DNA of 64,000 nt, taken from assembly GCA_965116495.1 (NCBI GenBank), contig OZ220696.1:1504001-1568000 (forward strand), in the 5' to 3' direction. The notes beneath the pieces were generated by a model, which saw nothing but the letters and a program-made list of their open reading frames with translations, made no database searches and was not told the DNA's origin. This DNA is from Gammaproteobacteria bacterium. GTDB lineage: Bacteria; Pseudomonadota; Gammaproteobacteria; Eutrophobiales; Eutrophobiaceae. The translations under genes were made by a program, and so were the position numbers. Of this stretch, positions 9,538 to 32,033 are shown piece after piece; within the stretch, counting starts at the first letter, position 1; each line of letters starts with the position of its first letter.

Positions 9538-9688
9538 TTAGTGTACAGTCTGTGGGTTGGCGCCAGCATACCATTACCAGGGTAATATTAAAAGAAATCC
9601 CGGCCGGCATAAGGGTTCATCCGGACCCGGCGGCAGGGAATTAATGGAGTCAGACTCGATTGATTTTCAAAATGGGGTCTGCTCCCAT

Positions 9689-11314
9689 TTATTCCCCAGC
9701 TTCGGAACGCAGACCCAGTACCAGGCACAGGCAGGACAGGAGCAGTACCAGGGTAAACGGCACGGCCATGGTGATGGTGCCTGCCTGTAATGCGCTCAAG
9801 GCGTCGTCGCCGCCGCCGATTAGCAGGGCTGCCGCAATGAGACCCAGCAAAACCGCCCAGAAGGCGCGCTGGTAGCGGGGTGAATCCAGTTTTCCTCCGA
9901 CAGTGATGATGTCTACAACCAGCGAACCGGAATCGGCCGAGGTGATAAAAAAAGTCAGTACCAGCACCACGGCCACCAGTGAAGCAAGGATGGTAAACGG
10001 CAGGTTCTCCAGCATATGGAACAGCGCCAGGGAGGGATCGTCAATGCCGCCCGCCAGTGCCCCGACACCCTGCTGGACCTGGTCCAGCGCAATGGCGCCG
10101 AACACCGACATCCAGATGGCGCTGACCAGTGCCGGCAGCAGCAACACTGCCGTTACGAACTCCCTGACTGTACGGCCCCTGGAAATACGGGCGATAAACA
10201 CGCCGACAAAAGGCGACCAGGAGATCCACCAGGCCCAATAAAACACGGTCCAGCCCTTGTACCATGCCTCATCTTCCCGACTGACCCAGTGGCTCAATGG
10301 AATGAAGTATGTCAGGTAGTGTGACAGGTTCTCACCGACGGCGGAAACAGCCGGTAAAGTGGGGCCGGCAACGACAACGAAAACAAGGAGCGACAGGGCA
10401 ACCGCTATATTGAAGTTGCTCAATACCTTGACACCCCGGTTCAGGCCGCGCATGACCGATATGATGGCAATCGCCGTGATCACGGCGATAATCAACAGTT
10501 GTGTCGTCAACCCGTTGTCAACGCCAAATACTGAGTGCAGCCCTCCAGTGGCTTGCTTCGCGCCCAGGCCAAGGGAAGTAGCCAGACCGAAGATGGTGGC
10601 AAAGACAGCCACCACGTCAATGACATGGCCCGGCCAGCGCCAGCAATACTCACCGAACAACGGATAAAATATGGAGCGGGTCACCAGCGGCAATCCCTTG
10701 TTGAATGAAAAAAAGGCCAGGGACAGCGCCACCACGGCAAAGATAGCCCAGGGGTGCAGGCCCCAGTGGAACAGTGTCGCCCCCATCGCAACGGCTGCCG
10801 CTTCCGGCGAATGGGGCTGTACATTCAGCGGCGTACCCGACCAGTTCGTGTAATAGGCGACCGGTTCGGCTACGCACCAGAACATCAGGCCGATACCCAT
10901 ACCTGCGGCAAACAGCATGGAAAACCAGGATAGCCGGGAAAACTCTGGTACCGCCGCCTCTCCGCCCAGGCGTACCTTCCCCCAGGGCAGCACGATCAAC
11001 AGCAGGCAAAAGATAACAAAAAAATTGCCGGAGATCATGACCAGCCAGTCGAAGTTTCCTATTGACCAGCTCTTGGCCTGTTCAAGAATCGCCTTCGCGT
11101 CCCGGGGGAATAATAACGTCCCTATTACGAAACCGATGGTGATGACCGCAGTGATAAAAAACACCGGGTTATGCAGTTCCATTCCAAACATGCGGACGTT
11201 GTCCTGGCCCACTTTATGAGAACTGTCGTAACGATTGCCGGATTGCACTATATATCTGATTGAACGAAGTTTTTCTTCCCTGACACTATAACCCGGAACA
11301 GGATGTAAATCCAT
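9689..11314 (-). CDS. BCCT family transporter (start uncertain)
   Basis: WFSMLFAAGMGIGLMFW, FHWGLHPWA, WTVFYWAWWISWSPFVG. Confidence 0.93.
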   Translation of the reverse strand: MDLHPVPGYSVREEKLRSIRYIVQSGNRYDSSHKVGQDNVRMFGMELHNPVFFITAVITIGFVIGTLLFPRDAKAILEQAKSWSIGNFDWLVMISGNFFVIFCLLLIVLPWGKVRLGGEAAVPEFSRLSWFSMLFAAGMGIGLMFWCVAEPVAYYTNWSGTPLNVQPHSPEAAAVAMGATLFHWGLHPWAIFAVVALSLAFFSFNKGLPLVTRSIFYPLFGEYCWRWPGHVIDVVAVFATIFGLATSLGLGAKQATGGLHSVFGVDNGLTTQLLIIAVITAIAIISVMRGLNRGVKVLSNFNIAVALSLLVFVVVAGPTLPAVSAVGENLSHYLTYFIPLSHWVSREDEAWYKGWTVFYWAWWISWSPFVGVFIARISRGRTVREFVTAVLLLPALVSAIWMSVFGAIALDQVQQGVGALAGGIDDPSLALFHMLENLPFTILASLVAVVLVLTFFITSADSGSLVVDIITVGGKLDSPRYQRAFWAVLLGLIAAALLIGGGDDALSALQAGTITMAVPFTLVLLLSCLCLVLGLRSEAGE

Positions 11315-11479
11315 GTACCGATTGTACTTGACTACCTGCAAAATTAATGGAAAATTGCGCCACCTGCCGATAAGGAGGTGACAGAAGCCACCCATAAACT
11401 CAGGGGTTCAGACACTAATCGGGTTACTACTCTTGAAGCATTCAGGTCAACAAATAAAAAAAGCCGCGGATCCTGGCAG

Positions 11480-11790
11480 AGCGGTTTTTCCGTTGCCGAA
11501 AGCGCCTTGCTGGTAGGCACCCTGATGTTCGGCGGGTTGGCGCTGCTGCTGCCGGTCGGCGGGTTGTCAGGCCCCGTACTCAGTACCCAGGTGATGAAGT
11601 TCTTCGGTCCGGGCAGCCTGTATTACTTCGTGGCCCTGGTTTACCTGTTCATGGCGCTGTTCACCCTGTACCGGATGTCGGTGCGAGCGCCGATTACCGC
11701 CGGGGAGCAATCCCACGGCATGGCGGTCATATTGCAGACCTCACAGGTCATCGTGGCCGAGGCGATGTATGAAACGACCCAAAATCCTCT
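11480..11790 (+). pseudogene. C-terminal remnant of an MFS transporter (YcaD-like), apparently internally deleted
   Basis: GFSVAESALL...GGLALLLPVG joined directly to GLSGP...GPGSLYYF...YRMSVRAP; no N-terminal half. Confidence 0.5.
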
Positions 11791-11850
11791 CAGCTTCCTT
11801 CGTCAGGACCATCAACCAACCCGGCCGCTACGGCGACGGCCGCGGAGGTC
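11769..11850 (+). pseudogene. N-terminal stub of a P4-like tyrosine integrase (arm-binding domain)
   Basis: MKRPKILSASFVRTINQPGRYGDGRGG matches the LxxxxV...PGRYxDGxG start of arm-binding domains; truncated at the RTX gene stop. Confidence 0.6.
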
Positions 11851-14482
11851 AGTGCATTACCGTCACTTCGTCCACAAAGAACACAAAATGGGCGTCCATC
11901 AAATCTGCCACATCCAAGTCCTTAAGCGTAACCGTTCCGCCACCATGGGAAGCCAAATCGATGACGAGACCGTTATCCTGTTGTAGTATGTCCAGGTCTT
12001 CCACAGACTGAATGTCCACAAACGCGGCAAGGTCCAATTTGTCTTCGCCATTGCCGAAATCCAGGATAGTGTCATTACCCTCCCCGGTGGCGAAAAAGGT
12101 ATCATCGCCTTCACCCCCATCCAGCACATCATCATCGGGGCCGCCCCGAAGCCGGTCATCGCCGGGACCACCTTCCAGGGTATCATTGCCGATGCCCCCG
12201 TAAAGCTTGTCATCACCGGGCCCGCCCAGCAACAAATCATCGCCGCCGCCGGGACCGCCGTACAACACGTCATTGCCGGCATCAGCGTCGATCCTGTTGT
12301 CTCTGAGATCACCCGCCAATACATCATCGAAGGTGGAGCCCAGGAGATTTTCTATGTCAGGCACCTCCATGGTCTGTACGTTGCCCTCGGAGTCGGTATA
12401 TTCGACTACATCCGTGCCCGCAAAAATATCACCTTCGGCCTCACCACCACTGGCCGTGCCGTCATGCAAACGCACTACCACACCTTCAGAGAAAAATATG
12501 GCCCCAAACAGGTAGGTAGCAGTGTCATTGCCTTCTCCGCCACGCAGCAGGTCCGCACCGGGACCCCCATTCAGCCAGTCATCACCTTCCCTGCCGTCCA
12601 ACTCGTCATCACCTCGGTCGCCACTGATGCGGTTGGGGCCATGGGCGCCGACCAATATGTCATCATAGACAGAACCTACCAGATCTTCGACATCAGGCAC
12701 TTCAATCTCCACGGTATCACCCGCGGAATTTATGTGCTCAACTGTCTTGCGACCGGGAAAGCTGTCGCCCTCAGCATCACCGCCCAGAGCCGTGCCATCA
12801 TACAAACGCACTTCCACAGCCTCGTCTGAATACAAATAATAGGCCAGATCATTACCAGCGCCGCCCCGCAGCACGTCGGCGCCTGCGCGGCCTTCCAGCA
12901 GATCATGGCCGCCTCTGCCGTCCAACTCATCATCGCCCCCGCGGCCTACCAATCGGTTCGACCCATCAGAGCCGACCAGTATGTCATCATGATAATAGCT
13001 GCCATACAGGTTCTCGATGTCAGGGATCTCAATTTCCACGCTATCACCCGCGGCGTTTTCGTACTCAATCGTCTGCTTGCCGGGAAAGGTATCGCCATCG
13101 GCATAGCCTCCGCGAGCCACACCGTCATGCAGGCTTACTTCCACCCCTTCATTCGATGAGAAGTAGCCGACTGTATCATTGCCCTCACCACCAATAAGCA
13201 CATCCGCGCCAGCGCCGCCCCAAAGCCTGTCATTGCCTTCCTTGCCATCCAGCGTATCATCACCGTAATAACCCCACAGCCAGTTTGCATCCTGGTTACC
13301 GACCAGCACGTCTTCATGGACAGAGCCAAACAGGTCGGAGATATCAAGAATCTCGATTTCCGTTACTTCCTTATCCGCACCAGGGAAGTAAAATGAAAGC
13401 AAGCCCTCCACAGAACCGGGTAAGTCGAAGTCCCACTCCACGGCTCCACCCCGCGTTTGCTCTATGGTCTTCGTGTTAGGAAATGTATCTCCTTCTGCAT
13501 CGCCACCACGAGCCGTGCCGTCATCCAGGCGCACCTCCACGCCGGCGTCGGAATACTGGTAGGAAGCAATATCCCAGTTGCCACTGCCAATGAGGGTGTC
13601 CGCGCCGGGACCGCCTTCGAGCCAGTCCCATCCTGCCCCGCCGTCCAGTACGTCATTACCGGGACCACCGATGAGCCGGGTGTGAAAGTAGTCGCTTGCC
13701 TCCGTGCCGGTAAGGCTCAGCGCTTCCGCGTTAATGTCATACACTGCCAACTGGTAGCGGCCGGAATTGTCCTGGGTCGGGTTACCCGTGAAGGCGCCGA
13801 CGCTGAGGTAGTACGTGGCCGTGACCTCGGGTGAGAACATCAGCTTTGAATTAACCATCCCCGCGGCATAGTCCACGTCGTCATGAAAGCCCACCTGCTC
13901 CCCTGCCTGGTTGTAAATCCTGAGCACTGTATCCGTGTCCGCATCAGGCCCGATACCTTGCAGCCTGATGTCATAGGTTTTCCCTTCGCTCAGCTCTACC
14001 TTGATCCAGTCCTGGTCAAACTTGCTGTCCAGCGTGCCCTGGAATCGCCCGCCCACAGAAACTGTCAGGAGGGTCTCAAGGTTATCGTCTGCCTCGTCAA
14101 ATACGGTAATTTCATAAGTGCCGACGTTATCCCTGCGCTGGCTCGGATAACCGCTGGCGCTGAGGTAATACGCACCGGTGTGTTCCGGGCTGAACTCCAG
14201 CATGGAGAAGAGGTTGTAGGATTCATTTTCGATATCGTCATTGCTGGCAACCTCCTGGCCCTCGGAGTCGTAAATCGTCAGCACGGTATCCGTCACTGCA
14301 TCGGGCCCGGTGCCGCTGAGCCTGATGTTATAGTTTCTCCCTTCCACCAGCTCAACCCTGATCCAGTCCTCATCAGACCTGTCCGATATAACGCCTTCAA
14401 AGCCCTCACCGACGGATATTGTGTATGCCGTGTCAATAGATGCGGTCGCATCCCGAGTATTGTCTTCAGTCGAATGTGTCAT
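11849..14482 (-). CDS. RTX/haemolysin-type Ca-binding repeat protein with two N-terminal PPC-like domains
   Basis: Many GGxGxDxL nonapeptides; four SDxGVxVxL.DGTA.GG.AEGD.F modules; two DxDW...L..G..Y...DTVL.IY domains; C-terminal DxIxDF...DKLDL; very acidic. Confidence 0.9.
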   Translation of the reverse strand: MTHSTEDNTRDATASIDTAYTISVGEGFEGVISDRSDEDWIRVELVEGRNYNIRLSGTGPDAVTDTVLTIYDSEGQEVASNDDIENESYNLFSMLEFSPEHTGAYYLSASGYPSQRRDNVGTYEITVFDEADDNLETLLTVSVGGRFQGTLDSKFDQDWIKVELSEGKTYDIRLQGIGPDADTDTVLRIYNQAGEQVGFHDDVDYAAGMVNSKLMFSPEVTATYYLSVGAFTGNPTQDNSGRYQLAVYDINAEALSLTGTEASDYFHTRLIGGPGNDVLDGGAGWDWLEGGPGADTLIGSGNWDIASYQYSDAGVEVRLDDGTARGGDAEGDTFPNTKTIEQTRGGAVEWDFDLPGSVEGLLSFYFPGADKEVTEIEILDISDLFGSVHEDVLVGNQDANWLWGYYGDDTLDGKEGNDRLWGGAGADVLIGGEGNDTVGYFSSNEGVEVSLHDGVARGGYADGDTFPGKQTIEYENAAGDSVEIEIPDIENLYGSYYHDDILVGSDGSNRLVGRGGDDELDGRGGHDLLEGRAGADVLRGGAGNDLAYYLYSDEAVEVRLYDGTALGGDAEGDSFPGRKTVEHINSAGDTVEIEVPDVEDLVGSVYDDILVGAHGPNRISGDRGDDELDGREGDDWLNGGPGADLLRGGEGNDTATYLFGAIFFSEGVVVRLHDGTASGGEAEGDIFAGTDVVEYTDSEGNVQTMEVPDIENLLGSTFDDVLAGDLRDNRIDADAGNDVLYGGPGGGDDLLLGGPGDDKLYGGIGNDTLEGGPGDDRLRGGPDDDVLDGGEGDDTFFATGEGNDTILDFGNGEDKLDLAAFVDIQSVEDLDILQQDNGLVIDLASHGGGTVTLKDLDVADLMDAHFVFFVDEVTVMH

Positions 14483-14747
14483 TGCCTCTCCCCTGTCATG
14501 AAAAAAAACTCAGCCCGCCTATAATGGGCCAACTCAAATAATATACTATTTTAATGATGTTTAGTTTCTCTAGAAATGCAAATTGGTGACCTCCTCCCTA
14601 AATATTTACCCACCTGTCGCTTAATATTTTCCCATAAACAACGATCCATCAATCAGTTCTGATAATAGACAAAGTGATAACTTAATGATTTAATATCATA
14701 TTAATTTACTATAATATCAATGAGTTATAAATTACAAAGGGCGGAAT

Positions 14748-15563
14748 TCAATTCCGTCCCCGTATCCTTGTAACATCGGGGATGAAGAGTTGCTCGCCTG
14801 AAATCCTGAATTCACGAATAATACGCTGCCCCTGCTCTCCCCGGATGAAGTCCACGTATTTCTGCGCCAGCGCCGTTTGGATATGGGGGTGTTTTTCGGG
14901 ATTAATGAGGATAACGTGGTAAGGATTGCGTAGCTCCGCTGCGCCTTGATGGACGATTACCAAATCTGTCTTGCCTTTAAATGCCAGGTACGTGCCCCTG
15001 TCAGACAGCGTGTACGCCTGCCTGTCATCGGTGATCTTCAATACGGCGCCCATTCCCTGGCCGACAGACAAGTACCATTCCCCTTCCGGCATGACGCGGG
15101 CCGCCTGCCAGAGAGCTATTTCTTTCTTGTGTGTCCCCGAAGCATCCCCTCTCGAGATAAAACCGGCAGCGGATTGTGCAATCCGAGTCATGGCGTCTGC
15201 CAGGGAATTCGCCGCGGCCACGGCTGCCGGGTCTGCGGCCGGACCGGCCAGGACAAAATCGTTGTGCATGACAGGCAGACGTTCCACACCGTAGCCGCTC
15301 TGCACGAATTCCTGTTCCGCTGCCGGCGCGTGAACCATGACCACGTCCACGTCGCCGTTCTCCGCCAGACGCAAGGCCTTGCCGCTGCCGACGGCGATCA
15401 CATCCACCGTGACGTTGTACCGCTCTTCAAAAGGCGGGTGCAGCAGGGATAGCAAGCCCGAGTTTTCCGTGCTGGTGGTGGTGGCCAGCCTTAATCGTTG
15501 TTCCGCACAAACAGTGTTTGAAATTAAAACTGCCGAGAGTAATGAGCATAAAACTCTCTTCAT
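14748..15563 (-). CDS. tupA: Tungstate (or vanadate) ABC transporter substrate-binding protein
   Basis: Signal peptide; LATTTSTENSGLL, DVVMVHAP, SRGDASGTHKKE, GQGMG. Confidence 0.88.
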   Translation of the reverse strand: MKRVLCSLLSAVLISNTVCAEQRLRLATTTSTENSGLLSLLHPPFEERYNVTVDVIAVGSGKALRLAENGDVDVVMVHAPAAEQEFVQSGYGVERLPVMHNDFVLAGPAADPAAVAAANSLADAMTRIAQSAAGFISRGDASGTHKKEIALWQAARVMPEGEWYLSVGQGMGAVLKITDDRQAYTLSDRGTYLAFKGKTDLVIVHQGAAELRNPYHVILINPEKHPHIQTALAQKYVDFIRGEQGQRIIREFRISGEQLFIPDVTRIRGRN

Positions 15564-15770
15564 TGCTAATTTAATTTCATGCCATCGGCCATTGTCATCA
15601 CGTCTTGCAGGTATTTGTCATAGTAGTATCTGAGTTGTGAATCTTGTGTACGAAAAGCATAGCAAACATCCCCCTTGTAAATTTTCTACTAATTTCCAGT
15701 GGCTGGAAGATTGTACCAATTTTCACTATGATCTAAATTTTGGTTCTTCAGACTTTTCTGTGGGTTCATA

Positions 15771-18209
15771 TTAAGCTGTGAGGCGTTCGTTGTCGGGGTC
15801 GAACGGGCTCTCCGGGACCACGACGGCCCGGTAGTTTTTGTTGAGGATATCGATCTCCATTTCAGTGCCTGCTACCGCGTATTCCGGCTTAACCATACCC
15901 AACGCCAGGGATTTGCCGACCCGGAAGCCAAAACCGCCTCCGGTGGCGCGCCCGATCAGTTCGCCATCCCTGGTCAGGGCATTGTTTCCCAGCGCATCGG
16001 CATCATCTGTGTCATGGACTTCCAGGGTGGCCAGTCTGTAGTTGAGACCGCGTTCCCTGCCTGCCAGCAGTTGTTCGCGGCCCAGGAAGTCCCCCTTATC
16101 CGGGAATACGAAGCGGTCCATTGCCGATTCCCAGGCGGAGTATTCGATGGACAACTCGGTGCCTACCATGCGATAGGATTTCTCCAGGCGCAGCGAATCC
16201 ATGGCGCGGATGCCGAAAGGCTGCAGACCCAGGTCTTCACCGGCTTTAAACAGCGCATCGAACAACGCGTTCTGCCGGTCGATGGGGTGATGCAGTTCCC
16301 AGCCCAGTTCGCCCACGTAGTTCAGCCGCAGGGCATGCACCGGTATCCCGGCCATATCGACCTGCCTGGCAGCCAGGAACGGGAATGCCCTATTGGACAA
16401 ATCATCAGTAGACACGCGTTGCAACAAGTGACGGGCAAAAGGACCGGCAACGACGAATACGCCGATGTTGTCGGTCAGGTGCTCGTAGTTAACCGAACCG
16501 TCGGCGGGCATAAATTTTGCCAGGTAATCGTGATCCAGTCTTTGCAATGCGGCAGCCGACACCAGGTAGAACGAATCTTCGGCCTCGCGGGTGATGGTAA
16601 ATTCTGAATGGATACCGCCGCGCCGGTTGAGTGAATGGCAGAGACGTATCCGTCCTGTCTTTGCGGGCAACCGGTTGGCGACCATGAAGTCCAGAAACGC
16701 CTCGGCGCCCGGCCCTGATATCCGGCACTTGGCAAATGGCGTCATATCCAGCAGCCCTACTCTCCGGTTCACGTGCAGCGCCTCTTTTCCAATGGCTTCG
16801 AACCAGCGCGACCTGCGGAACGACCATTCATCCTGCCGTAGCATGCCGTCTACGGCAAACCAGTTAGGCCGCTCCCAACCGAATTTCTGCCCGAATACGG
16901 CCCCCATTTCCATCAGACGGCCATAACAGGGCGCGGTCTTCAGCGGGCGGGCCGCCGGCCGCTCCTCATCGGGGTAATGGATGATGAACACATGGGAGTA
17001 GGCTTCCTTATTCTTTTTGACGAGATAATCCTTACTGACGTAATCGCCATAGCGGCGCGGCTCAACCCCCAGCATGTCAATACCGGGTTCACCTTCGACT
17101 ATCCATTCCGCCAGTTGCCTGCCGGCGCCGCCGGCTGCGGTAATACCAAAGCTGTGGCCTTCGTTGAGCCAGAAGTTCCTCAGGCCCCAGGCCGGACCGA
17201 CGATGGGGTTGCCGTCCGGGGTGTAGGCGATAGCACCGTTGTATACCTGCTTGATGCCGCATTCGGCAAAGGCCGGCACCCGGTTCATCGCTGCCTCGAT
17301 ATGGGGTTCCAGGCGCTCGATATCTTCCTGGAACAGTTCATATTCTGCGGTCTCGTCGGGACCGTCCACGTAACAGCAGGGCGCACCTCTCTCATAGGGA
17401 CCCAGGATAAATCCCTGGTTTTCCTCGCGCAGGTACCAGGAGCCGTCGGATTCACGCAGGACAGCCATCTCAGGCAGGTCCTGCCCGGCCCGGGCAACCA
17501 GGTCGGGGTGGGATTCCGTCACGATATACTGGTGTTCAACCGGCATCACCGGGATGTCCAGACCGACCATGGCCCCGGTGCGGCGGGCATAGTTGCCCGT
17601 CGCGGAGACGACGTGTTCGCAGGTGATGTCGCCTCTTGCGGTCCTGACCCGCCATTCCCCCGTGGCGCTGCGTTCAATGCCTTCGACCATGGTGTTGCGG
17701 TAAATCAGCGCACCGCGCGCCCGGGCGCCTTTTGCCAGGGCCTGGGTCAGGTCAGCCGGCTGGATATAACCGTCTTCAGGATGGAACAGCGCGCCGACCA
17801 ACCCGTCCGTATTGCACAGGGGCCAGATTTCTCCTATTTGTCCCGGTGTCAGGAATTCAACATTGACCCCAATAGTGCGGGCAGTCGCCGCGTATTGATA
17901 GTACTCATCCATACGCTCCCGGTTCATGGCCAGGCGCAGGTTGCCGACCCGCTTGAAGCCGACCTGTTGTCCGGTTTCAGCCTCAAGTTGCTGGTAAAGA
18001 TTTACCGAATATTTGTGGATCTGGCCGACGCTGTAGCTCATGTTGAACAGCGGCAGCAGGCCGGCAGCATGCCAGGTGGAACCGGACGTCAGTTCCGCTT
18101 TTTCCACCAGCACGACATCTTCCCCCCAGCCTTTTAGGGCCAGGTGATACAGGGTGCTGACACCGACAACACCGCCGCCTATAACCACTACCCGGGCGTG
18201 TGTTTTCAT
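15771..18209 (-). CDS. GcvT-family FAD-dependent oxidoreductase (dimethylglycine dehydrogenase-like)
   Basis: GGGVVG, STWHAAG, YTPDGNP, GWERPNWF, GELGWELH, SLRLEK. Confidence 0.92.
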   Translation of the reverse strand: MKTHARVVVIGGGVVGVSTLYHLALKGWGEDVVLVEKAELTSGSTWHAAGLLPLFNMSYSVGQIHKYSVNLYQQLEAETGQQVGFKRVGNLRLAMNRERMDEYYQYAATARTIGVNVEFLTPGQIGEIWPLCNTDGLVGALFHPEDGYIQPADLTQALAKGARARGALIYRNTMVEGIERSATGEWRVRTARGDITCEHVVSATGNYARRTGAMVGLDIPVMPVEHQYIVTESHPDLVARAGQDLPEMAVLRESDGSWYLREENQGFILGPYERGAPCCYVDGPDETAEYELFQEDIERLEPHIEAAMNRVPAFAECGIKQVYNGAIAYTPDGNPIVGPAWGLRNFWLNEGHSFGITAAGGAGRQLAEWIVEGEPGIDMLGVEPRRYGDYVSKDYLVKKNKEAYSHVFIIHYPDEERPAARPLKTAPCYGRLMEMGAVFGQKFGWERPNWFAVDGMLRQDEWSFRRSRWFEAIGKEALHVNRRVGLLDMTPFAKCRISGPGAEAFLDFMVANRLPAKTGRIRLCHSLNRRGGIHSEFTITREAEDSFYLVSAAALQRLDHDYLAKFMPADGSVNYEHLTDNIGVFVVAGPFARHLLQRVSTDDLSNRAFPFLAARQVDMAGIPVHALRLNYVGELGWELHHPIDRQNALFDALFKAGEDLGLQPFGIRAMDSLRLEKSYRMVGTELSIEYSAWESAMDRFVFPDKGDFLGREQLLAGRERGLNYRLATLEVHDTDDADALGNNALTRDGELIGRATGGGFGFRVGKSLALGMVKPEYAVAGTEMEIDILNKNYRAVVVPESPFDPDNERLTA

Positions 18210-18356: not shown

Positions 18357-18395
18357 AATTCCTGCTTCCTAATTCCTAATTCTTAATTCCTAATT
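18357..18395. repeat. Heptamer tandem array (AATTCCT variants)
   Basis: About 5 units; contains the stop codon of the Dke1-like gene. Confidence 0.8.
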
Positions 18396-18857
18396 TTCTT
18401 CTTTTGCTGCCTGCGCGGCATCCCAGGCTTCCTGGACGGTCTGCCAGGTCACCAGGGCAACGGTATTACCATCATCGTCAACAAAATTCAGGGGGCCGAG
18501 AAACGTCATGTAAAACTCACTGTCTTCAAGAAAGTTTGTCAACCCATGAAAAGCCTGGCATGCCTCGTAGCCGTAGGCGGGGGCTTTTACGCTGACGCCA
18601 CCTTCTTCTTCGCCGCCCCGGACTTCCATGTGACCTTTCGTCAGGAAATATTCGCCGGGACCGATATGTACGTGGCTGGCAAAAGACGAGCCTTTCGGGC
18701 AATCGTATATGGCTGCCCAGGAACCCAGTTCGGGCGCCACGTTCAACAATTTCCAGCGTATGCCGCCCTGGCTCAACGGCCCCGGAAAATCTACCCAGTC
18801 AACTTCATCGATCTGCACAGAACGGCCGGGGACAGGGTCATACTTTTGTGGATTCAT
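18390..18857 (-). CDS. dke1: Acetylacetone-cleaving (beta-diketone) dioxygenase, 3-His cupin
   Basis: Long blocks match Acinetobacter Dke1 as I recall it: GSSFASH.H.GPGEYFLTKG.MEVRGGE.EGG and FYMTFLGPLNF.DD.G. The three His ligands are present. Confidence 0.88.
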   Translation of the reverse strand: MNPQKYDPVPGRSVQIDEVDWVDFPGPLSQGGIRWKLLNVAPELGSWAAIYDCPKGSSFASHVHIGPGEYFLTKGHMEVRGGEEEGGVSVKAPAYGYEACQAFHGLTNFLEDSEFYMTFLGPLNFVDDDGNTVALVTWQTVQEAWDAAQAAKEEN

Positions 18858-18893
18858 GTTATTACCTCCTCATATATCAGGTTTTTTTACTGG

Positions 18894-19430
18894 TTACTGG
18901 TTACATAAAGCTGCCGATATTCCTGCTTCCAGTATTTCAATCCAGTATCCGTCCGGATCTTTAATGAAAGCGATACCCTTCATCTTGCCGTCATCCGGCC
19001 GCTTGACGAATTCTACCCCTAACTCCTCGAAGCGGCTACAGGCTTGATAAACATCGGGAACGGACAGTCCTATGTGGCCGTAACCACGCGGGTCATTGTT
19101 ACCGTTATGGTAACCATCAAATGATTCGTCATTTTCCGTGCCCCAGTTATGGGTCAGTTCCAGTAACGCTTTTTGCTCAAACGTGTAGGTTGTCCGTTCC
19201 AGCGGGTCCTGTGGAACAGGCCCATCTTCCGGCCGGACATAGCCCATAAAGAACAACGAGAATTCCATCTCGGGGAAGTCAAGTTTCTTGACCAGGGTCA
19301 TGCCCAGCACGTCCCGGTAAAACGCAAGGGAACGTTCCGGGTCCTTGATGCGAAGCATGGTCTGGTTGAATACAAACCCTTCCGTTTCAGGGGACTTCGT
19401 AATGCCGCCCTCTTGAACCGTATCACTCAT
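18894..19430 (-). CDS. gloA: Lactoylglutathione lyase (glyoxalase I, long Zn-type)
   Basis: [46 protein letters not shown]. Confidence 0.95.
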
Positions 19431-19526
19431 TGCGTATATACCCTTTTCAATCTCTCACAGAGCCTTACATGACCCGTCCCTGGGCATAACTTTAACCCGT
19501 GACTGCGTTTACAGGAACCGTATCCA

Positions 19527-21812
19527 TTAGAAATGGTACTGTACCGAACCGACTACGCGGCGCGGCTGCTCCAGGGTGCCGATGATGATATAACCTGGAG
19601 CTCCGGGCAGTTTGCTACCCGCAAAGTTCGGGAATTCCTGCACGTCGATGTAGTAGTCCTCGTCGAACAGGTTCTCTATATGAACGCCGAACTCCCAGTT
19701 GTTCCACTCCACCCCGGCGCCCAGGTCCACGACGGTAAAATCAGGGTTCGTCCAGAACGGAAAATCATCCCCGGGAGAATCCCATAGTTGGGCATTGGTG
19801 GAAGCCTCCCCCTTGTAGCGCAGTTGCAGGCGCCCGAACAGGCGCATGTCATCGTTCACCTGCTGGTCGTAATCCAGGGCCGCGGTCGCGCTCCACTTTG
19901 CGGTGTTGGGCGGTCTCCTTCCCGAAAGGTCGGAGAGATAATCGCTTGGGGTCACGAATTCAGTACCATCGACCCATTCCGCGTCCACATAGCCAAACCC
20001 GGCGGACAGGGTCCAGTTCTCATGCATGGACAGGACCATATCGCCCTCCAGTCCCCATTGCTCTGAATCGCCGATATTGAAAATGCCCTCAAGTACGGTA
20101 CCGGTTTGAGGGTTCTTCGTCTGAAGTTCGAACTGCCGGCCCTCGTAATCGATATAGAAACCCGCCAGGGTCAATATCAGGCGGTCATCCAGCAACCTTC
20201 CCTTGTAGCCGATTTCAACCTGTGTTGCCTCTTCCGGTTCAATGTCGAACAGGGCGTTCTCGCCCTCCAGGTCGAACGCATTAAAACTCCCCGGCTCAAA
20301 ACCCTGGGAGAACGTCGCGTAGACCATTGACCGGTCATCATCAAAGAACATGGAGACGGACGCACGGCCCAATACCTCGGTGTTGGACTGATTTCCGGTG
20401 GTGCCACTGTCACGGTTGTGCGCGTCGAATTCCCAGTGGTCCACGCGCACACCGCCACCAATCTCGATGTTGTTCATGCGATAACTGAAGTTGGCAAAAC
20501 CCGCCACCTGTTCGCGTTTTTCGCTGAGGTTCTCGAAAGGAACTACTGCAATTATTGTCTCCTCGTCGCCGGGCGGTGGCAACTGGTAACCATGGAACTC
20601 GCTATAGTAAGGCGGAGTCAAGCTGTCTTCACAAGCGTTATCCAGGAAATAGCAGAAACTCAGGGGAACCGGAAGTTCCCCGAACTTGTGCCTCTTCCAG
20701 TCCAGGTAGTAGGCGCCGGCCTGCCATTGCAAGGGACTGTCATCCGTGGAGGTAAAGCGCAATTCCTGGGTCCATACCTCGACCGGCCATGACCGTGTCA
20801 GGTCGAGCACGAACTCCTGATCGATATCAAGATCGGTCTCGCGGTACGAGTCCGTGTCCGTATAGGAGGTAAGATATGTGGCGTCGAAGTTGCCGAAATC
20901 ATAGGTCAGTTCTATGCTGCCCGCGACGGTTTCCCGCTCGTGGCCCGCATTGTAGCTGGTGTCGATGATGTTGGTGTGGGTGAGATCACCGCTCATCTCC
21001 CGGTTCCAGATGTTGTTGGGCCCGTCGTACTCGTTGTAACGCAGGGTAGCGTAGAGCGAAAGCTGTTCGCTGATACTGCCGGCCAGGGCCGCGCGCACGC
21101 CGTATTTCTCCGTGTGCCCCACGTCGGGATCAACGTCCGGAACGCCGCCGTTCAGGCGCGGGGTGTTGGGGTTGACCAGGTACGAATCATCGGTCATGGC
21201 AAACCCATACAGCGCCAGTGCCCAATCATTGCCCAGCGGCACATTCAACTGGATCTCGCCATCATAGTAATTGTCTTCACCGGCCTGCGCTTTAACCCGG
21301 CCCGAAAAGGCTTCCGGGTCCGGCCGCCTGGTAACAAATTTGATCGCGCCGCCGATGTTGGCGCCGCCATACAGGATGCCCTGCGGCCCTTTCAACACCT
21401 CGATCCGTTCGAAATTGCCGAAGCGGGACGAAGCATCCCCGAACAACTGCACGTCATCCAGGTAAAACCCGGCCCCCTGGGTATTGCCGAATCCCCCCAG
21501 ACTGCGAATGGAGACATTGGGGTAACCGTCCAGGCGCCGGCTCATCCAGAGATTCGGCACGAGCAGCCCGATATCTTCCAGGCCGTTGATATTTGCGCTC
21601 TCCACCATGTCACCGGTGAAAGTGGTCAGCGATTCCGGTATCTCCAGCACGTTTTCCTGACGCTTACGGGCGGTAACGATGATCTCCTCCAACAGCGTAT
21701 CCCCTTGTGCCATGACTGCCTGACTGCTCAATAGCGCCCCCGCCGGTGTGAGCAACGTAATTGCGAGCATTGTCGTTGCCAACGCAGTGCTGCTGAAATG
21801 GTATCTGTTCAT
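19527..21812 (-). CDS. TonB-dependent receptor
   Basis: Signal peptide, LEEIIVTARKR, ERIEVLKGPQG.LYG, NLFDEDY, terminal F. Confidence 0.95.
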   Translation of the reverse strand: MNRYHFSSTALATTMLAITLLTPAGALLSSQAVMAQGDTLLEEIIVTARKRQENVLEIPESLTTFTGDMVESANINGLEDIGLLVPNLWMSRRLDGYPNVSIRSLGGFGNTQGAGFYLDDVQLFGDASSRFGNFERIEVLKGPQGILYGGANIGGAIKFVTRRPDPEAFSGRVKAQAGEDNYYDGEIQLNVPLGNDWALALYGFAMTDDSYLVNPNTPRLNGGVPDVDPDVGHTEKYGVRAALAGSISEQLSLYATLRYNEYDGPNNIWNREMSGDLTHTNIIDTSYNAGHERETVAGSIELTYDFGNFDATYLTSYTDTDSYRETDLDIDQEFVLDLTRSWPVEVWTQELRFTSTDDSPLQWQAGAYYLDWKRHKFGELPVPLSFCYFLDNACEDSLTPPYYSEFHGYQLPPPGDEETIIAVVPFENLSEKREQVAGFANFSYRMNNIEIGGGVRVDHWEFDAHNRDSGTTGNQSNTEVLGRASVSMFFDDDRSMVYATFSQGFEPGSFNAFDLEGENALFDIEPEEATQVEIGYKGRLLDDRLILTLAGFYIDYEGRQFELQTKNPQTGTVLEGIFNIGDSEQWGLEGDMVLSMHENWTLSAGFGYVDAEWVDGTEFVTPSDYLSDLSGRRPPNTAKWSATAALDYDQQVNDDMRLFGRLQLRYKGEASTNAQLWDSPGDDFPFWTNPDFTVVDLGAGVEWNNWEFGVHIENLFDEDYYIDVQEFPNFAGSKLPGAPGYIIIGTLEQPRRVVGSVQYHF

Positions 21813-22092
21813 GTACTTACCCCCGTTGCTGATATATTAGGGAAGCTCTGATTTAATCAGAGGTTCCTTTGTTGTATTTTAGCCAGGCGAGTGTACTAGA
21901 TAATACAGTAACCGGCTTGTTTACCGGTGAAACTGTAGCTGTCTGAACGTGCAATCAACCCGGAACAGGGGCTTTTGCCGGTCAACCCGGTAGCCCCCGC
22001 AGCTTGACGTTGGCCATTCCCGTCTATCAGTTGCCAACTCTGGATTAATCTTGACCCGTCAATCGATCGATCAGAATTAAATGGAAAGAGTA

Positions 22093-23139
22093 CTAGAAAC
22101 TGTACCTCATCGACAACACGGCCCTGGTGTCTTTGGTATCAATGAAATTCAGGTGTCCGACGTCTGCCCGGGCGTCTTCGTGGTTGAGGCCGAGGTTGGC
22201 AGACAGGCCGCGTGCCACGTCATACCGGAGTCCCAGCGCGGCGGAGATTTTATCCTCGCCTTCCAGTTGGCCGTAATGGCCTTCCACGGATAAAGTGAGC
22301 ATGCGGATCTTGAGATGGGCGCCGGATGAAACATACCATTGCATCGTGTCCGGGACCAGCGGCAGCGTTGCGGAAAAATGTTCATAGCCGGCGCCGATAT
22401 CGAACAACATGCTGCCGTAGACCAACTCGCCGACGAGGCCCGCTCCCTTGGTCTCGTATCGGTAGGTGGTATGCTCGGGGGTATAGGTTCCCTGGGTATA
22501 GCGCGCGGTGAAACGGTAGTCCCGGGTACCGAGGGGACGCTGGAACATGGCGCCCAGGTCGAAATTGCTTTCTTCATCTACTACGGCGCTCATTACCACC
22601 GGCCCGAAACGGCCCACGTAAGCGCCGCCCCAGTTTTCCAGCCCACCGAACGCGTCATCGAAAGCCAGGAAGGCATTGCCGGCGCCACGCAAGCGCCGTG
22701 TCTGTTCGCGCACTATACCGGAGAGATTACCGCCCAGCACCGTGCCCCAGGCGCCGCCCACGGACAGCGCGACGTTGTCCTGATAGTTTTCTCCCATATC
22801 AACGGCCATTTCCGGGTCGGTGGTGTACTGGCCGAAATACGCCAGGTTGACGCGCCAGCGGTTCGGCAATTGGGTGGTAGCGCTGACCTGGAAATTGCCA
22901 ATGAAACCTTCGTCGTCATTCCCGTCTCCATCCAGACCGAAACTCACCGGGGTGTCTACCAGGCCGTTCAGCCTTAATGTAACGTCTGCCAGTTCAAGCG
23001 CCAGCGGCTCCTCCAGCGACGACAAGCGGTCATAATTCAGGGACGCGCCCTGTGCCGCCGCCGTATTGAAGACGGCGTTTGCGCCGACGCAGGCCACGAG
23101 GAAAACAAGTACGGCGTGCAATTTGCTGTAAACGTTCAT
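22093..23139 (-). CDS. Putative porin / outer-membrane beta-barrel protein
   Basis: Signal peptide, alternating amphipathic strands, terminal MRYSF; starts 4 bp after the haloperoxidase stop. Confidence 0.7.
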   Translation of the reverse strand: MNVYSKLHAVLVFLVACVGANAVFNTAAAQGASLNYDRLSSLEEPLALELADVTLRLNGLVDTPVSFGLDGDGNDDEGFIGNFQVSATTQLPNRWRVNLAYFGQYTTDPEMAVDMGENYQDNVALSVGGAWGTVLGGNLSGIVREQTRRLRGAGNAFLAFDDAFGGLENWGGAYVGRFGPVVMSAVVDEESNFDLGAMFQRPLGTRDYRFTARYTQGTYTPEHTTYRYETKGAGLVGELVYGSMLFDIGAGYEHFSATLPLVPDTMQWYVSSGAHLKIRMLTLSVEGHYGQLEGEDKISAALGLRYDVARGLSANLGLNHEDARADVGHLNFIDTKDTRAVLSMRYSF

Positions 23140-23143
23140 GACG

Positions 23144-24520
23144 TCAGACCTTTTTTGGGAAGGTGGAATGGAAGGCCTGACGGGCGATGGCGCGGCCGGC
23201 CTTCATTGCTTGGGTATGATCCAGCTCCCAGTGCACTCCGCCGTAGAGACGGCTCATGCCATTCTCTTCCGCCGCCTGGCTCAGACTGCTCCAATGCCGG
23301 GTAACGCCCCTTAACTGCGGCCACAGTACTTCATCAGGTGAACGTGCTGAAAACGCAACGTCGTCACGATCGCAAAACAGCCCTATCATCTCTGCGCCAG
23401 CGCTGCCAAAAGTGGAGTGTCCCGCAGTGTAGGAAGGAAATTCCGGAGTCGGGATAAAACTGAGCCAATCAGGCTGCAGCTTGACGCGCGGGTCCGGGTT
23501 TTGAAACTCCGGCGCTCGAACCCGAATGGCGGTTTCCGGTCGAATGATATCATGGTGGTACTTGCTGTCCCAGGCGCTGATGGAGGCATCGCACTGGGTC
23601 ATGCCAATTAAGGCAAAGGCACGCGCCAGGTCTATGAAACTGAGATCGAGGTACTGCAACAGTTGTATCGCGATATAGATAAAGTGTCCCGCTGGGGTGA
23701 TGCCCCATGGACCGTCCTCCCAGAACAGCGCTATCTCCTCCTCGGCGGCAGTCCGGATCTTGCTATCCATGCCGCCCAGCCTCCTTATATTATTGAATTC
23801 ATTAGCAAATTCCGGGCTTTCCGGGTCATGGAAGTCAACTGCGCGAAATTGTGACCCGCTTTTCATGGTCCAGGGTTTGATGTGACCGTGGCCGGGATAC
23901 AGGCAACGCGTGAAGGAAGAAAAAGCCGGCCCCGGCCTGGCGCCGTAGAACGGGCCGGTGGGACTCCAGCGCAACGAGTCGCCACGCCGGGGATAACGCC
24001 CGAGATAATAGGTGGCTTCCTCAGGCTCACTCCCGTCGTTGGTACGCATTTTGACCACATGCAAACCGACCGCGCGTCCCCATTCCGCCCCCAGGGATTT
24101 GGCTTCACCAGCGGGGAATCGACTCTGGAACGCGAGACGTTCAATCAGAAACGGTTGTTGAAACGCTTCCGCGGCGGCTATCGCGAACGCAGCGCCATAG
24201 GCTACCTCCGGGTCTGCGCCACTCGGACCATGACCGATACCAAATGGTTCCTCATAAGCCTGGACGATCCCGTTGGCAGCCAGAAACCCGGCGGCCATGG
24301 GCATGGCATAGTTATACGCCGCCCGGGGCGGTGTGACGCGCTGGTCGCGTACCTGCTGCAACACAATATCCACCCAGTGAAACACCGTGTTCCGGTTCTG
24401 CGGTTCAAGAATCTGACTCAGGTACGATGCTCTGCTGCCGTAAGCACTGGCGCATCCTTTGGCCAGCAAGGCAGACGCAGCGCCCGCTCCGGCCAGGAAT
24501 TGTCTTCGTGAAAATTTCAT
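23144..24520 (-). CDS. Vanadium-dependent haloperoxidase, Tat-exported
   Basis: SRRQFL Tat motif; PAP2/VHPO motifs W.SKY....RP, P.FPSYTAGH, SRLYGGVHW. Confidence 0.88.
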   Translation of the reverse strand: MKFSRRQFLAGAGAASALLAKGCASAYGSRASYLSQILEPQNRNTVFHWVDIVLQQVRDQRVTPPRAAYNYAMPMAAGFLAANGIVQAYEEPFGIGHGPSGADPEVAYGAAFAIAAAEAFQQPFLIERLAFQSRFPAGEAKSLGAEWGRAVGLHVVKMRTNDGSEPEEATYYLGRYPRRGDSLRWSPTGPFYGARPGPAFSSFTRCLYPGHGHIKPWTMKSGSQFRAVDFHDPESPEFANEFNNIRRLGGMDSKIRTAAEEEIALFWEDGPWGITPAGHFIYIAIQLLQYLDLSFIDLARAFALIGMTQCDASISAWDSKYHHDIIRPETAIRVRAPEFQNPDPRVKLQPDWLSFIPTPEFPSYTAGHSTFGSAGAEMIGLFCDRDDVAFSARSPDEVLWPQLRGVTRHWSSLSQAAEENGMSRLYGGVHWELDHTQAMKAGRAIARQAFHSTFPKKV

Positions 24521-24728
24521 TGTTAAGGCCCTCCCAAATCAACAAAATCACTCACATCCATACAACAATTTATTTTCTGAGAAAGTAATTATAATTATAT
24601 CAATATGATATGTCAACATTATTATAAAATAAATTAAAAACCCTTGCTAACTGCGCATAATGAGGTGTGCGCCTGCTTGCCCCGGTTGACATAGCCCTGC
24701 CCCGGCAACTCCTATATAATTCCCCGTT

Positions 24729-25079
24729 ATGCCTGAGTACCTAATCGCGCCGTCAATACTCTCCGCCGACATGGCCCGCCTGGGTGAGGAGGTGGAGACC
24801 GTCGTTGCCGCGGGCGCCGACTACATCCACGTGGATGTGATGGATAACCACTACGTGCCGAACCTGACGTTTGGCCTGGTGGCGGCGCACGCGCTGCGGG
24901 AACACGGTATTACCGCACCCCTGGACGTGCACCTGATGATTGAACCGGTGGACCGGATCATCCCGGACTTTGCCGCGGCCGGTGCGGATACGTTTGTGGC
25001 GGGTTCAGCGATATTCGGCAGCGCTGATTACGCCACCACTATCGCAGCGATGAGAGCAGCATTGACCACGGCAGGGTAA
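24729..25079 (+). pseudogene. rpe: Ribulose-phosphate 3-epimerase with large in-frame internal deletion
   Basis: [31 protein letters not shown] joined via AAAGAD to FVAGSAIF; 116 aa, about half the normal length. Confidence 0.85.
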
Positions 25080-25085
25080 CAGGCC

Positions 25086-25607
25086 ATGCTGTTGATGATT
25101 GACAATTACGATTCCTTTACCTACAACCTGGTTCAATACTTCGGCGAACTGGGCCAGGAGGTTGATGTCTACCGCAATGACCAGGTTTCCCCGGAGCGGA
25201 TCCACGAACTGGGGCCGGAACACATCGTGATCTCCCCGGGACTCTGCACACCGAGCGAAGCCGGCATATCGGTTGACGTGATCAACGAGTTCATGGATAA
25301 GGTCCCGATCCTGGGGGTGTGCCTGGGGCACCAGAGCATCGGCCAGGCATTGGGCGGACGCATCGTCCATGCCAACCGCATCATGCACGGCAAGACCTCT
25401 GACATACATCATCGAAATACGGATGTTTTTACCGGCCTGGACTGCCTGCAGGTGACGGCCTGGACCTGCTCTGAAGCTGGGGATGTCGATGAAATCATGG
25501 GAGTAAGGCACAAGAATTATCCCGTTTACGGCGTGCAGTTCCATCCCGAGTCGATCCTGACCACTTTCGGCCATGACCTGCTCAGGAATTTCCTGCAAAT
25601 CAACTAG
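25086..25607 (+). pseudogene. trpG: Anthranilate/aminodeoxychorismate synthase component II with internal deletion
   Basis: [18 protein letters not shown] and QFHPES present. The RYHSL segment is missing (FTGL joined to DCLQVTAW) and SPGP reads SPGL. Confidence 0.75.
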
Positions 25608-25618
25608 TGCGGAGGGCA

Positions 25619-26596
25619 ATGGCAAAGACTAATTCACAATCGTGCGTCAATACCTGGTCCACGGACAGCCTGGCGAAGAGCGACCGCTTCGATGCCTGGG
25701 CAACCGTTCTCAATGAGGCGTATGGCCGCTGGGAAATGGATCGGGCGCAGGCGCCCGACTTCTTCAGCCGCGTCAAGCATTACGACGACACCCTGCTGAA
25801 GGTCATTGAATGCACCTGCGACCCGTGCGGCGCGACCCGCACCCGCGCCAGCATCCGCGCCGACGGGCTGGAGAACCTGACCGTACAGGCGGTACTGGCT
25901 GGCCGGGAATATATCAACTTCAACGGCGAGGACATCCTACTGAAAGCAGGCGATCTCCTGATCTGGGACAGCACCCGGCCCATGACGTTCCAGGTGCAGA
26001 ACCGCTTGCACAAGATCTCCGTGATGCTGCCCTTGCCGCGCTTTCAATCCTGGCTGCCCCGCTCCTGGTTCTCCATTCGCCACTCGCTGGATGGGCAATC
26101 AAACAGCGGCCTGTTATTGACCAACCATATCAAATCACTGCGGGATTCGGTCTTCGACGGCGGCTGCAAGGACAACCATGCCTTGGTTGATGCGACCATC
26201 GGCGTGCTGGTCAACGCACTGGAGATGGGCAGCGCGGATGATCCGACCCCGCTGCGCGTCACCCAGTTACGCTATATCAAGGAATACATCCGGGCCAACA
26301 TTCGCGACCCTGAGCTGTCCCCGGCCTTGATCGCCAAGGCCGGCGGCATGTCCTCCCGTTACCTGCACTGGCTGTTCAATGCCAACGAGGATGAGGATAC
26401 GGTCAAACAGTATATTTTCCACCAGCGCCTGGACCTGTGCGCCCGTGACCTGTCGAATCCGCACATGAAACACAGGAAAATCTCCGATATTGCCTTCTAC
26501 TGGGGTTTCCAGGACACCGCCCATTTCAACAAACGCTTCAAGCAGCAGCACCAGTTGTCGCCGGGCGCGTTTCGGGAGAAGATGCAGAAGGATTAA
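25619..26596 (+). CDS. AraC-family regulator (AraC_binding_2, FeaR-like)
   Basis: WST...RF.AW N-terminus; DPELSP..IA...GMS.RYLH; ISDIAF.WGF.D.AHF; GGAGG RBS before ATG 25619. Confidence 0.9.
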   Translation: MAKTNSQSCVNTWSTDSLAKSDRFDAWATVLNEAYGRWEMDRAQAPDFFSRVKHYDDTLLKVIECTCDPCGATRTRASIRADGLENLTVQAVLAGREYINFNGEDILLKAGDLLIWDSTRPMTFQVQNRLHKISVMLPLPRFQSWLPRSWFSIRHSLDGQSNSGLLLTNHIKSLRDSVFDGGCKDNHALVDATIGVLVNALEMGSADDPTPLRVTQLRYIKEYIRANIRDPELSPALIAKAGGMSSRYLHWLFNANEDEDTVKQYIFHQRLDLCARDLSNPHMKHRKISDIAFYWGFQDTAHFNKRFKQQHQLSPGAFREKMQKD

Positions 26597-30721: not shown

Positions 30722-31972
30722 ATGAACATGAGCGCAGTTATCAAGACCGATATTGACCGAATGATTGCCGGCTACCGCGACGGCCATTCCCTGGAGCAGC
30801 CATTTTACCTGTCGCCGGACATCTTTGCCCATGACATGGAGCGCCTGCTTTTCCGCAGATGGCTCCTGGTCGACCATGAATCACGCATCCCCGACAAGGG
30901 CGACTATTTCCTGTTTTACATTGCAAACGAGTCCCTCATCATCATTCGCGAGTCCGATGACAGGGTCAATGCTTTTTTCAACGTCTGCCGGCATCGCGGT
31001 TCGCGGGTGTGCCTGGAACAGCAGGGCAATAAAAGACTGCTCACCTGCCCCTACCACGCCTGGACCTACGACCTGAACGGGGAATTGCGGCCGCCGCAGT
31101 TGATGCCGGATGGTTTTGACAGGTCGCAACACAACCTGCATAAATGCCATGTGACCGTCTTCCACGGCTTTATCTTCGTGTGCCTGTCCGGGGATACTCC
31201 GCCTGATTTTGCCGAGGAATACGCACCCTTCGAAGAAATGCTGGGTTTTCACGGGTTCAAGGACGCGAAGATCGCAGTGAAGCGTGATTATCCGAACCGC
31301 TGCAACTGGAAACTGGTGGTGGAAAACTTTCTCGAATGCTACCACTGCGCCCCGTCGCACCCGGAATATTGCAGTGTCCATCCGCCCGACCAGTTGCTGG
31401 CGCTGGGGGCAGGTCCGGGCTCGGGCCCCGAGGAAGCCGTGGAGAAATACCAGCCCATACTGGATGAATGGACGGAAAAGACCCTGGCTATGGGCCACCC
31501 CGTCCCTGAGTTTGAACGGGATGAGTATTCCATTGATTTTGCACAGCTATCAAGAGTCCCGATCAATGACCGCAACTTTGCCTCGGAGACCCGGGACGGT
31601 AAACCCGGTTGCAGGAAACTGATGGGCGAATTCAGGGAATGCGATCACGGGGAAACGGCTTTCGTATTCAACCCGACCAATTACATCCTTGCGTTCAACG
31701 ATTTTGCGCTCATGGTGCGCTTCACGCCGCGGGATACCGTCAATACCGACGTGCAGTTCAGTTGGCTGGTGCACAAGGATGCCGAGGAAGGCGTGGATTA
31801 TGACCCGGAAAACCTGACCTGGGTGTGGCACGTGACCACACTACAAGACAAGAAGATCACCGAAGACAATAACGCAGGGATCATGTCCAGCCGTTACCGG
31901 CCCGGCCCTTATTCCATGCATGAAGGTAAGGTTGCGACGTTTATCCGCTGGTATTTGCACGGCATACGCTGA
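30722..31972 (+). CDS. Rieske non-haem iron oxygenase alpha subunit (GbcA/Stc2 betaine demethylase-like)
   Basis: CRHRG...CPYHAW; NWKLVVENFLECYHC..H; WLVHKDAEEGVDYD; Y.PGPYS. Confidence 0.9.
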   Translation: MNMSAVIKTDIDRMIAGYRDGHSLEQPFYLSPDIFAHDMERLLFRRWLLVDHESRIPDKGDYFLFYIANESLIIIRESDDRVNAFFNVCRHRGSRVCLEQQGNKRLLTCPYHAWTYDLNGELRPPQLMPDGFDRSQHNLHKCHVTVFHGFIFVCLSGDTPPDFAEEYAPFEEMLGFHGFKDAKIAVKRDYPNRCNWKLVVENFLECYHCAPSHPEYCSVHPPDQLLALGAGPGSGPEEAVEKYQPILDEWTEKTLAMGHPVPEFERDEYSIDFAQLSRVPINDRNFASETRDGKPGCRKLMGEFRECDHGETAFVFNPTNYILAFNDFALMVRFTPRDTVNTDVQFSWLVHKDAEEGVDYDPENLTWVWHVTTLQDKKITEDNNAGIMSSRYRPGPYSMHEGKVATFIRWYLHGIR

Positions 31973-32008
31973 TAAATACCGGGAAACACCAATGGGGAGG
32001 ACTCTACG

Positions 32009-32031: not shown

Positions 32032-32033
32032 AT

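Follow-up and report, generated by a model that had tools for sequence, protein, structure and literature searches.

We analyzed a 64,000-nt window of contig OZ220696.1 (GCA_965116495.1); all coordinates below are positions in this window, and its source genome (G000) is a single 4.34 Mb contig that is 99.5% complete. Three co-oriented open reading frames (ORFs) on the minus strand encode, in order, a TonB-dependent receptor (19527..21812; 761 aa), a long-type glyoxalase I (GloA; 18894..19430; 178 aa), and a 155-aa cupin with a 3-His Fe(II) site that is predicted to be a Dke1-type β-diketone dioxygenase (18390..18857). The gaps between them are 96 bp and 36 bp, exactly as given in an earlier note on this DNA, which read the genes as a module for uptake, cleavage, and detoxification of β-diketones. 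An RBS-like purine-rich stretch precedes each of the three ORFs, and a promoter/terminator scan returned fewer sites than in shuffled sequence, with no terminator-like site between the three genes. Contigs from the DNA runs X1 and X3, possibly derived from the source sample, cover 18366–19848 with zero mismatch, and an X5 contig from another study covers 19422–19643, so that the assembly is supported over 18366–19848. All three genes are represented in RNA-library contigs of relatives (mostly 90–99% alike or less), and in X19, X20, and X21 such contigs bridge the dke1-gloA gap, although contigs of this kind cannot prove a single transcript or its level.

In phmmer searches, the cupin matched Dke1 of Acinetobacter johnsonii (EC 1.13.11.50; PDB 3bal) with an E-value of 2.6e-53 and the structural-genomics entry 2o1q with an E-value of 2.4e-56, while the next family reached only 0.026. 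It is a single cupin of a size near the ~153 residues of Dke1, and 79 of 135 residues aligned to 3bal are identical (~59%), with the numbering in register. The iron ligands of Dke1 are described as His62, His64, and His104, and its second shell as Tyr70, Arg80, Glu98, and Thr107 (PMC4019311). All of these, together with Glu69, are kept in the window cupin and are invariant in 86/86 aligned sequences, so that the cupin family, the 3-His site, the hydrophilic gate (Tyr70/Arg80/Glu98), and Thr107 are alike in the window protein, Dke1, and 2o1q; the Dke1 blocks and 3-His center reported from inspection of the translation are thereby borne out. One difference is at position 51, which is Phe in Dke1 and Tyr in the window cupin. 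The 2,4'-dihydroxyacetophenone dioxygenase (PDB 4p9g, 5bpx) and related Cupin_7 enzymes belong to the same Pfam family, but the window cupin is nearer to Dke1 and gave no match to 4p9g or 5bpx at E-values up to 1. As judged from these comparisons, the window cupin is a close Dke1 homologue with an intact active site, and diketone cleavage is predicted for it. Dke1 uses O2 to convert acetylacetone to acetate and methylglyoxal and requires two β-positioned ketones (PMC4019311, PMC10947199), and the further route from methylglyoxal to lactate via glyoxalase has already been published (PMC7226712). The source strain of Dke1 was isolated from sewage through growth on acetylacetone; Dke1-similar sequences have been noted in Sargasso Sea data (PMC4019311). 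In the literature searched, we came across no transporter, regulator, or gene cluster described for Dke1.

The window GloA is of the long, eukaryote-like type and passes TIGR00068 (201.4 bits against a cut-off of 120), confirming that the middle gene encodes a glyoxalase I. Its residues Q23, E91, H119, and E165 align with the Gln/Glu/His/Glu set of mammalian GLO1, the metal ligands of the human enzyme. While Dke1 is single-copy in the source genome, a second, short GloA-like gene is found at 2.21 Mb (G000:C1:2211869-2212315; 118.7 bits against the same cut-off of 120), so the window gloA is not the sole copy, and the concern that it might be the only housekeeping gloA can be set aside. The genome also encodes elsewhere a GloB-like protein (182 bits against a cut-off of 201), an FAD-linked 2-hydroxyacid dehydrogenase orthologous (50% identical) to the type linked to Dke1 in other genomes, and GlcD (55%) and Acs (68%) proteins. 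The window GloA has a counterpart in the known GloA–GloB–D-lactate dehydrogenase pathway, and both gloB and dld adjoin Dke1 in Paraburkholderia; it differs from that pathway's enzyme in being an extra, pathway-linked copy behind a predicted methylglyoxal-generating enzyme, to which GloA is fused in some other loci.

The receptor has plug and β-barrel domains, an N-terminal TonB-box-like motif, and a C-terminal Phe. It exceeds the cut-off of no named receptor family, the best siderophore family being TIGR01783 (160 against 223.5 bits), and an AlphaFold model built from a three-sequence alignment had a pLDDT of 27. The source genome encodes dozens of TonB receptors (92 first-look candidates), so the presence of one is no evidence for a large substrate, and the suggestion that it implies a larger β-dicarbonyl is not upheld. 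Own-genome paralogues are ~28% identical or less over full-length alignments, and the receptors linked to Dke1-type cupins and glyoxalase form one clade (FastTree support 1.0), outside which 14 of these paralogues fall. A precedent for TonB-dependent import of an organic substrate for catabolism is DdvT of Sphingobium SYK-6 (PMC6874591), although its substrate, a lignin-derived biphenyl, differs from that proposed for the window receptor.

A GTDB scan returned 216 Dke1 relatives, and gene neighborhoods within about 6 kb were counted for the best 80, a set that therefore leans to close relatives. Represented among these are congeners, SAR86, Haliea, Woeseia, Azotimanducaceae, Steroidobacteraceae, Henriciella, and erythrobacters. 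The receptor clade was present at 61/80 loci, a GloA-type gene at 57/80 (38 long, 19 short), and both at 51/80, while 12/80 had no partner. Genes for a D-2-hydroxyacid dehydrogenase were found at 25/80 loci (11 Dld, 11 FAD-oxidase type, and 3 GlcD), an AraC-type regulator at 33/80, a second cupin at 17/80, and acs at 4/80. When only the 58 loci flanked by 4 kb or more on each side were counted, the receptor was present in 51, GloA in 47, and the dehydrogenase in 20, and only 3 had none; outside the window's genus (n = 64), the counts were 45 for the receptor, 47 for GloA, 25 for the dehydrogenase, and 41 for receptor and GloA together. The two GloA types are non-orthologous, so that one partner has replaced another in the module, and the short GloA-like genes fall below the cut-off of NF050074 (130 against 165) and so are not certified as GloA. 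The linked Dld scored 826 bits with NF008387, well past its cut-off of 391, and the linked Acs passes TIGR02188. About ten gene orders were counted among the loci, and GloA and Dke1 are fused in a single 382-aa ORF in L026, L027, and L028, as well as in the database clusters P0121 and P0122. Isolates that carry the module include Aurantiacibacter zhengii V18, Altererythrobacter sp. GH1-8, and SAR86 HIMB1674.

The reverse test, in which whole genomes were searched with the receptor and then with Dke1, showed the two co-occurring at the level of single genomes in four families. In the window's own family (n = 121), the receptor was found in 19 genomes and Dke1 in 18, the Dke1 of the odd genome being cut by an N gap. 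Receptor and Dke1 occurred in the same 3 genomes of the G519 family (n = 201), and in the G521 family (n = 121), 12 genomes had the receptor and 16 had Dke1, with 11 shared against ~1.6 expected by chance. The corresponding numbers for the G520 (SAR86) family (n = 47) were 16, 10, and 9 shared. At the level of the class, Dke1 is rare (3/400 genomes besides G000). The linkage of receptor, gloA, and dke1 is far above chance. It is kept, and rearranged, across distant marine taxa, so the possibility that it might not be conserved did not hold; what the survey supports is linkage in one marine Dke1 clade and a few loci outside it, not in Dke1 homologues generally.

Two of four plasmid hits were annotated, and both of these independent records, as far as their gene content indicates, carry the chemistry of the module without the receptor. 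On the Paraburkholderia plasmid (L093, NC_018696), Dke1 occurs with an NTF2-like gene, three SDR genes, a VOC gene, an AraC-like regulator, two gloB, and dld, and the Tistrella plasmid (L094, NC_017966) has the order gloA-Dke1-NTF2-regulator. The NTF2-like gene, of 110 aa, directly follows Dke1 on both; since Dke1 needs the enol form of its substrate, we speculate that it might encode a keto-enol tautomerase.

Comparison with other members of the genus indicates how the window's copy arose. In most congeners, an AraC gene is divergent from receptor-cupin 2-gloA-dke1. In the window, ~600 bp are missing at 19485..19490 relative to congeners (blastn against L007, of which 4755–5361 are absent), and the AraC/FeaR-like regulator lies at 25607..26596 on the plus strand (likely start ATG 25619), separated from the receptor by a 3.6 kb insertion (21986..25608) that lies outside the module. 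The cupin-less junction was recovered in the DNA runs X1, X3, and X5 and the cupin-2-bearing form in X13, and an X3 contig joins 21985 to 25609, which represents the form without the insertion. On these alignments, the window copy is a trimmed five-gene unit, with cupin 2 deleted and AraC displaced by a haloperoxidase cassette; the three-gene arrangement stands as first described, but as the trimmed form of a larger unit. Cupin 2 itself (L002:4841-5317 and 16 other loci) is a Dke1-like 3-His cupin of 150–158 aa, ~29% identical, encoded between receptor and gloA, with Glu69 changed to His and Tyr70 to Val; 4p9g and 5bpx match the congeners' cupin 2 weakly (E about 1e-4). A motif upstream of the receptor, GCAC-N4-AGAC (21941..21952, minus strand), is present in 16/35 AraC-bearing loci, mostly congeners, and in 2/50 without AraC, and is regarded as a weak, post hoc candidate operator.

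The insertion holds a porin-like gene without a Pfam match (22093–23139), a vanadium haloperoxidase-like gene with a twin-arginine-like start (23144–24520), and internally deleted copies of rpe and trpG that are ~97% identical to DNA of the congener G437, the native rpe-trpG being at 3.03 Mb in G000. Haloperoxidases brominate β-diketones, and a brominated 2,4-dione has been reported from Asparagopsis (PMC11106770). Nevertheless, the haloperoxidase was rejected as a partner of the module and is treated as incidental, because three congeners (G437, G430, and G419) have it at a distance from Dke1 and because it arrived with rpe-trpG DNA. The GcvT-like and sarcosine oxidase genes downstream were likewise discarded as partners, as they adjoin Dke1 only within the window's genus.

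Based on the gene content of these loci, we consider it probable that the genes form a conserved marine module for substrate-induced import and catabolism of a methyl-β-diketone or its immediate precursor. The receptor would import acetylacetone or a longer compound of the same form, R-CO-CH2-CO-CH3, or else the precursor of such a compound. The Dke1-type cupin would use O2 to cleave the diketone, yielding methylglyoxal and a carboxylic acid, and the glyoxalase route would then carry the methylglyoxal via D-lactate to pyruvate for carbon and energy. Induction would be exerted through the AraC regulator, and the GloB-like, D-2-hydroxyacid dehydrogenase, and acetyl-CoA synthetase genes elsewhere in the source genome may serve the route. 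If glyoxalase is needed, the product should be a 2-oxoaldehyde, and the central CH2 of the substrate is therefore presumably unsubstituted; the Dld and acs partners in turn suggest methylglyoxal as a product, with acetate as another in some lineages. The most likely natural source would be a fragment from a polyketide or fatty-acid synthase, such as a 3,5-dioxo acid or a pyrone that would yield the diketone on loss of CO2. As genes for an AraC/FeaR-like regulator, for D-2-hydroxyacid dehydrogenases, and in some loci for acetyl-CoA synthetase also belong to the module, it has the appearance of carbon catabolism rather than detoxification alone; the coherent module first proposed is thus retained, while detoxification appears too narrow a purpose for it. 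The linked FAD-oxidases resemble D-2-hydroxyglutarate dehydrogenase (D2HGDH; binding residues from PMC7801405) and keep the residues of the human enzyme for the lactate moiety, but in the Dke1- or gloA-linked sequences that were aligned, the C5-carboxylate residues T390/K401/Y432/N443 are replaced, which fits a neutral D-2-hydroxyacid as their substrate. A route from succinylacetone or 4,5-dioxovalerate to D-2-hydroxyglutarate was rejected because the linked FAD-oxidases lack these C5-carboxylate residues. Also rejected was the phloroglucinol-to-triacetate route (PGR, DPGC, TfD, and TAL; pathway as defined in PMC10470551), since the cyclase-family DPGC and the β-keto acid cleavage enzyme were absent among the neighbors scanned.

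Several observations weigh against this proposal. When metagenomes were scanned with a more distant Dke1 as seed, 409 loci resulted, and 75 of the 80 that were surveyed lacked any partner, although many are short (29/80 are at least 8 kb) and the query came from that clade. These Dke1s form a separate clade on the Dke1 tree, in which the module reappears in a small inner group (L035, L038, L160, and kin). No module partners were found near Dke1 in G302 and G129; gloA is absent from the locus in seven congeners (L008-L010, L012-L014, and L175), where it is therefore dispensable; and in the Haliea genome G523, Dke1 and gloA are present but nothing matched the receptor. Conversely, in seven SAR86 genomes the receptor clade is present but Dke1 is not; these genomes have gloA (7/7) and a di-cupin (6/7), together with genes for Rieske and SnoaL proteins, ACMSD-like and other amidohydrolases, and SDRs. 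The receptor is therefore not specific to Dke1, and it may carry a larger ring compound; more generally, what accompanies the receptor clade is glyoxalase and a cupin of the Dke1 superfamily, and its cargo may be a family of related compounds. The fusion is confined to one lineage and is split in L021, and the 80 loci are the closest relatives, with kin among loci and genomes that are not independent and many incomplete genomes. Finally, acetylacetone is described as not a natural metabolite (PMC7226712), and the main texts of the algal volatile literature searched contain no mention of acetylacetone or pentanedione.

Loci of the unlinked Dke1 clade have heterogeneous neighbors. Two lineages with differing neighbors were seen among L087, L088, L099, L105, L106, and L114, in one of which Dke1 is beside Ser/Thr kinase, tesB, haloalkane dehalogenase-like, and citE-like genes, and in the other beside luciferase-like monooxygenases. 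The SAR86 family (L177-L187, L190-L192) and L200 (G867:C1:3572000-3588000) have a conserved catabolic cluster, with or without Dke1, that comprises a Rieske oxygenase, a SnoaL-like protein, ACMSD-like and second amidohydrolases, one or two SDRs, a di-cupin, gloA, an FAD-linked hydroxyacid dehydrogenase, and the same receptor clade. The di-cupin has two Cupin_7 domains, with a His site only in the second.

Four other explanations were weighed against import and catabolism of a methyl-β-diketone. The substrate could be a β-dicarbonyl without a methyl-ketone end, such as malondialdehyde, another 3-oxo-aldehyde from lipid oxidation, or a longer symmetrical diketone, giving glyoxal or a longer 2-oxoaldehyde and thence glycolate or another D-2-hydroxyacid. 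We regard this as rather unlikely: glcDE(F) adjoins the module in 3/80 loci, the hydrophobic pocket of the linked FAD-oxidase could fit larger 2-hydroxyacids, and Dke1 accepts 3,5-heptanedione (PMC10947199), but D-lactate and acetate are indicated by Dld, which exceeds its curated cut-off in 11 loci, and by acs in 4, and the same review states that both ketones are essential. It is also conceivable, at a still lower probability, that the receptor imports a larger ring compound requiring the Rieske, SnoaL, amidohydrolase, SDR, and di-cupin proteins of SAR86, and that the window's genes are a reduced or decaying remnant. The same receptor clade is indeed surrounded by this upstream set in SAR86, with a similar set at a separate, second locus in G867; the source genome has only 24–34% identical best matches to these enzymes and none to the di-cupin; the window has lost cupin 2 and had its regulator displaced; and the congener G469 has a frameshifted Dke1. 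Decay is harder to reconcile with three intact ORFs that are 88–99% identical to the copies of the closest congeners, with the occurrence of relatives' sequences in RNA libraries, and with the short module standing alone in most non-SAR86 loci, across two classes.

Uptake of a metal-diketonate chelate, with Dke1 destroying the ligand to free the metal and glyoxalase clearing only a toxic by-product, appears very unlikely. β-Diketones chelate iron, and by family and by structure the receptor comes closest to siderophore receptors, but these matches are all weak and below the cut-off, and the partners are a substrate-type AraC regulator, D-hydroxyacid dehydrogenases, and acs. Moreover, when regions upstream of 57 receptors were scored for a Fur box, using the E. 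coli consensus, 0/57 reached 14/19, the same as shuffles, while the same scoring gave 10 sites of at least 15/19 in the source genome. Fur regulation was rejected on this ground, and the metal chelate suggested in the earlier note is unlikely because of the missing Fur box. The last explanation, that an orphan Dke1 lies by chance between a housekeeping gloA and one of the many TonB receptors, can be given hardly any credence. Although TonB receptors are numerous in the genome and another clade often has Dke1 without partners, coincidence would have to produce one receptor clade with two GloA types, three dehydrogenase types, some ten gene orders, and a fusion; by our arithmetic, gloA would be expected in a random 12.5 kb stretch in less than 1% of genomes, against the 57/80 observed, and the conserved linkage, genome co-occurrence, and fusion already refute it.

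Other features of the window were also recorded. A heptamer repeat (AATTCCT-type) at 18357–18395 overlaps the dke1 stop, and tandem pairs of it occur 52 times in the genome, both strands counted. Methylamine/betaine-type genes at 7948–18209, 30722–34346, and 44453–48068 encode two BCCT transporters, two GcvT-like FAD oxidoreductases, two Rieske oxygenases, and a homocysteine S-methyltransferase. An 877-aa protein with PPC domains and RTX-type calcium-binding repeats is encoded at 11849–14482, and type I restriction-modification genes at 52489–60608 have a GmrSD endonuclease between hsdS and hsdR.

The module is real, conserved, and apparently undescribed, built on a known enzyme and a known route; no description of the cluster was found in the literature searched, which covered few subscription papers. 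Dke1 serves as an intensively studied model for 3-His iron chemistry, and its substrate is described as not naturally occurring (PMC7226712), and the module makes the question of a natural substrate testable through an AraC sensor, a specific receptor, and named isolates. It also suggests a substrate class for a receptor clade found in 16 of the 47 SAR86-family genomes searched. More tentatively, and with somewhat less than even confidence, the receptor clade, Dke1-type cupins, and glyoxalase may mark an unrecognized class of marine dissolved organic matter, namely polyketide-derived methyl-β-diketones, or pyrones and methylated rings that yield them, which would be scavenged by SAR86, Azotimanducaceae-type, and animal-associated gammaproteobacteria, with SAR86 adding upstream Rieske, decarboxylase-like, and amidohydrolase steps. 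If true, this would supply the missing natural role for Dke1 and reveal a new way for carbon to enter a lineage that is among the most abundant in the surface ocean.

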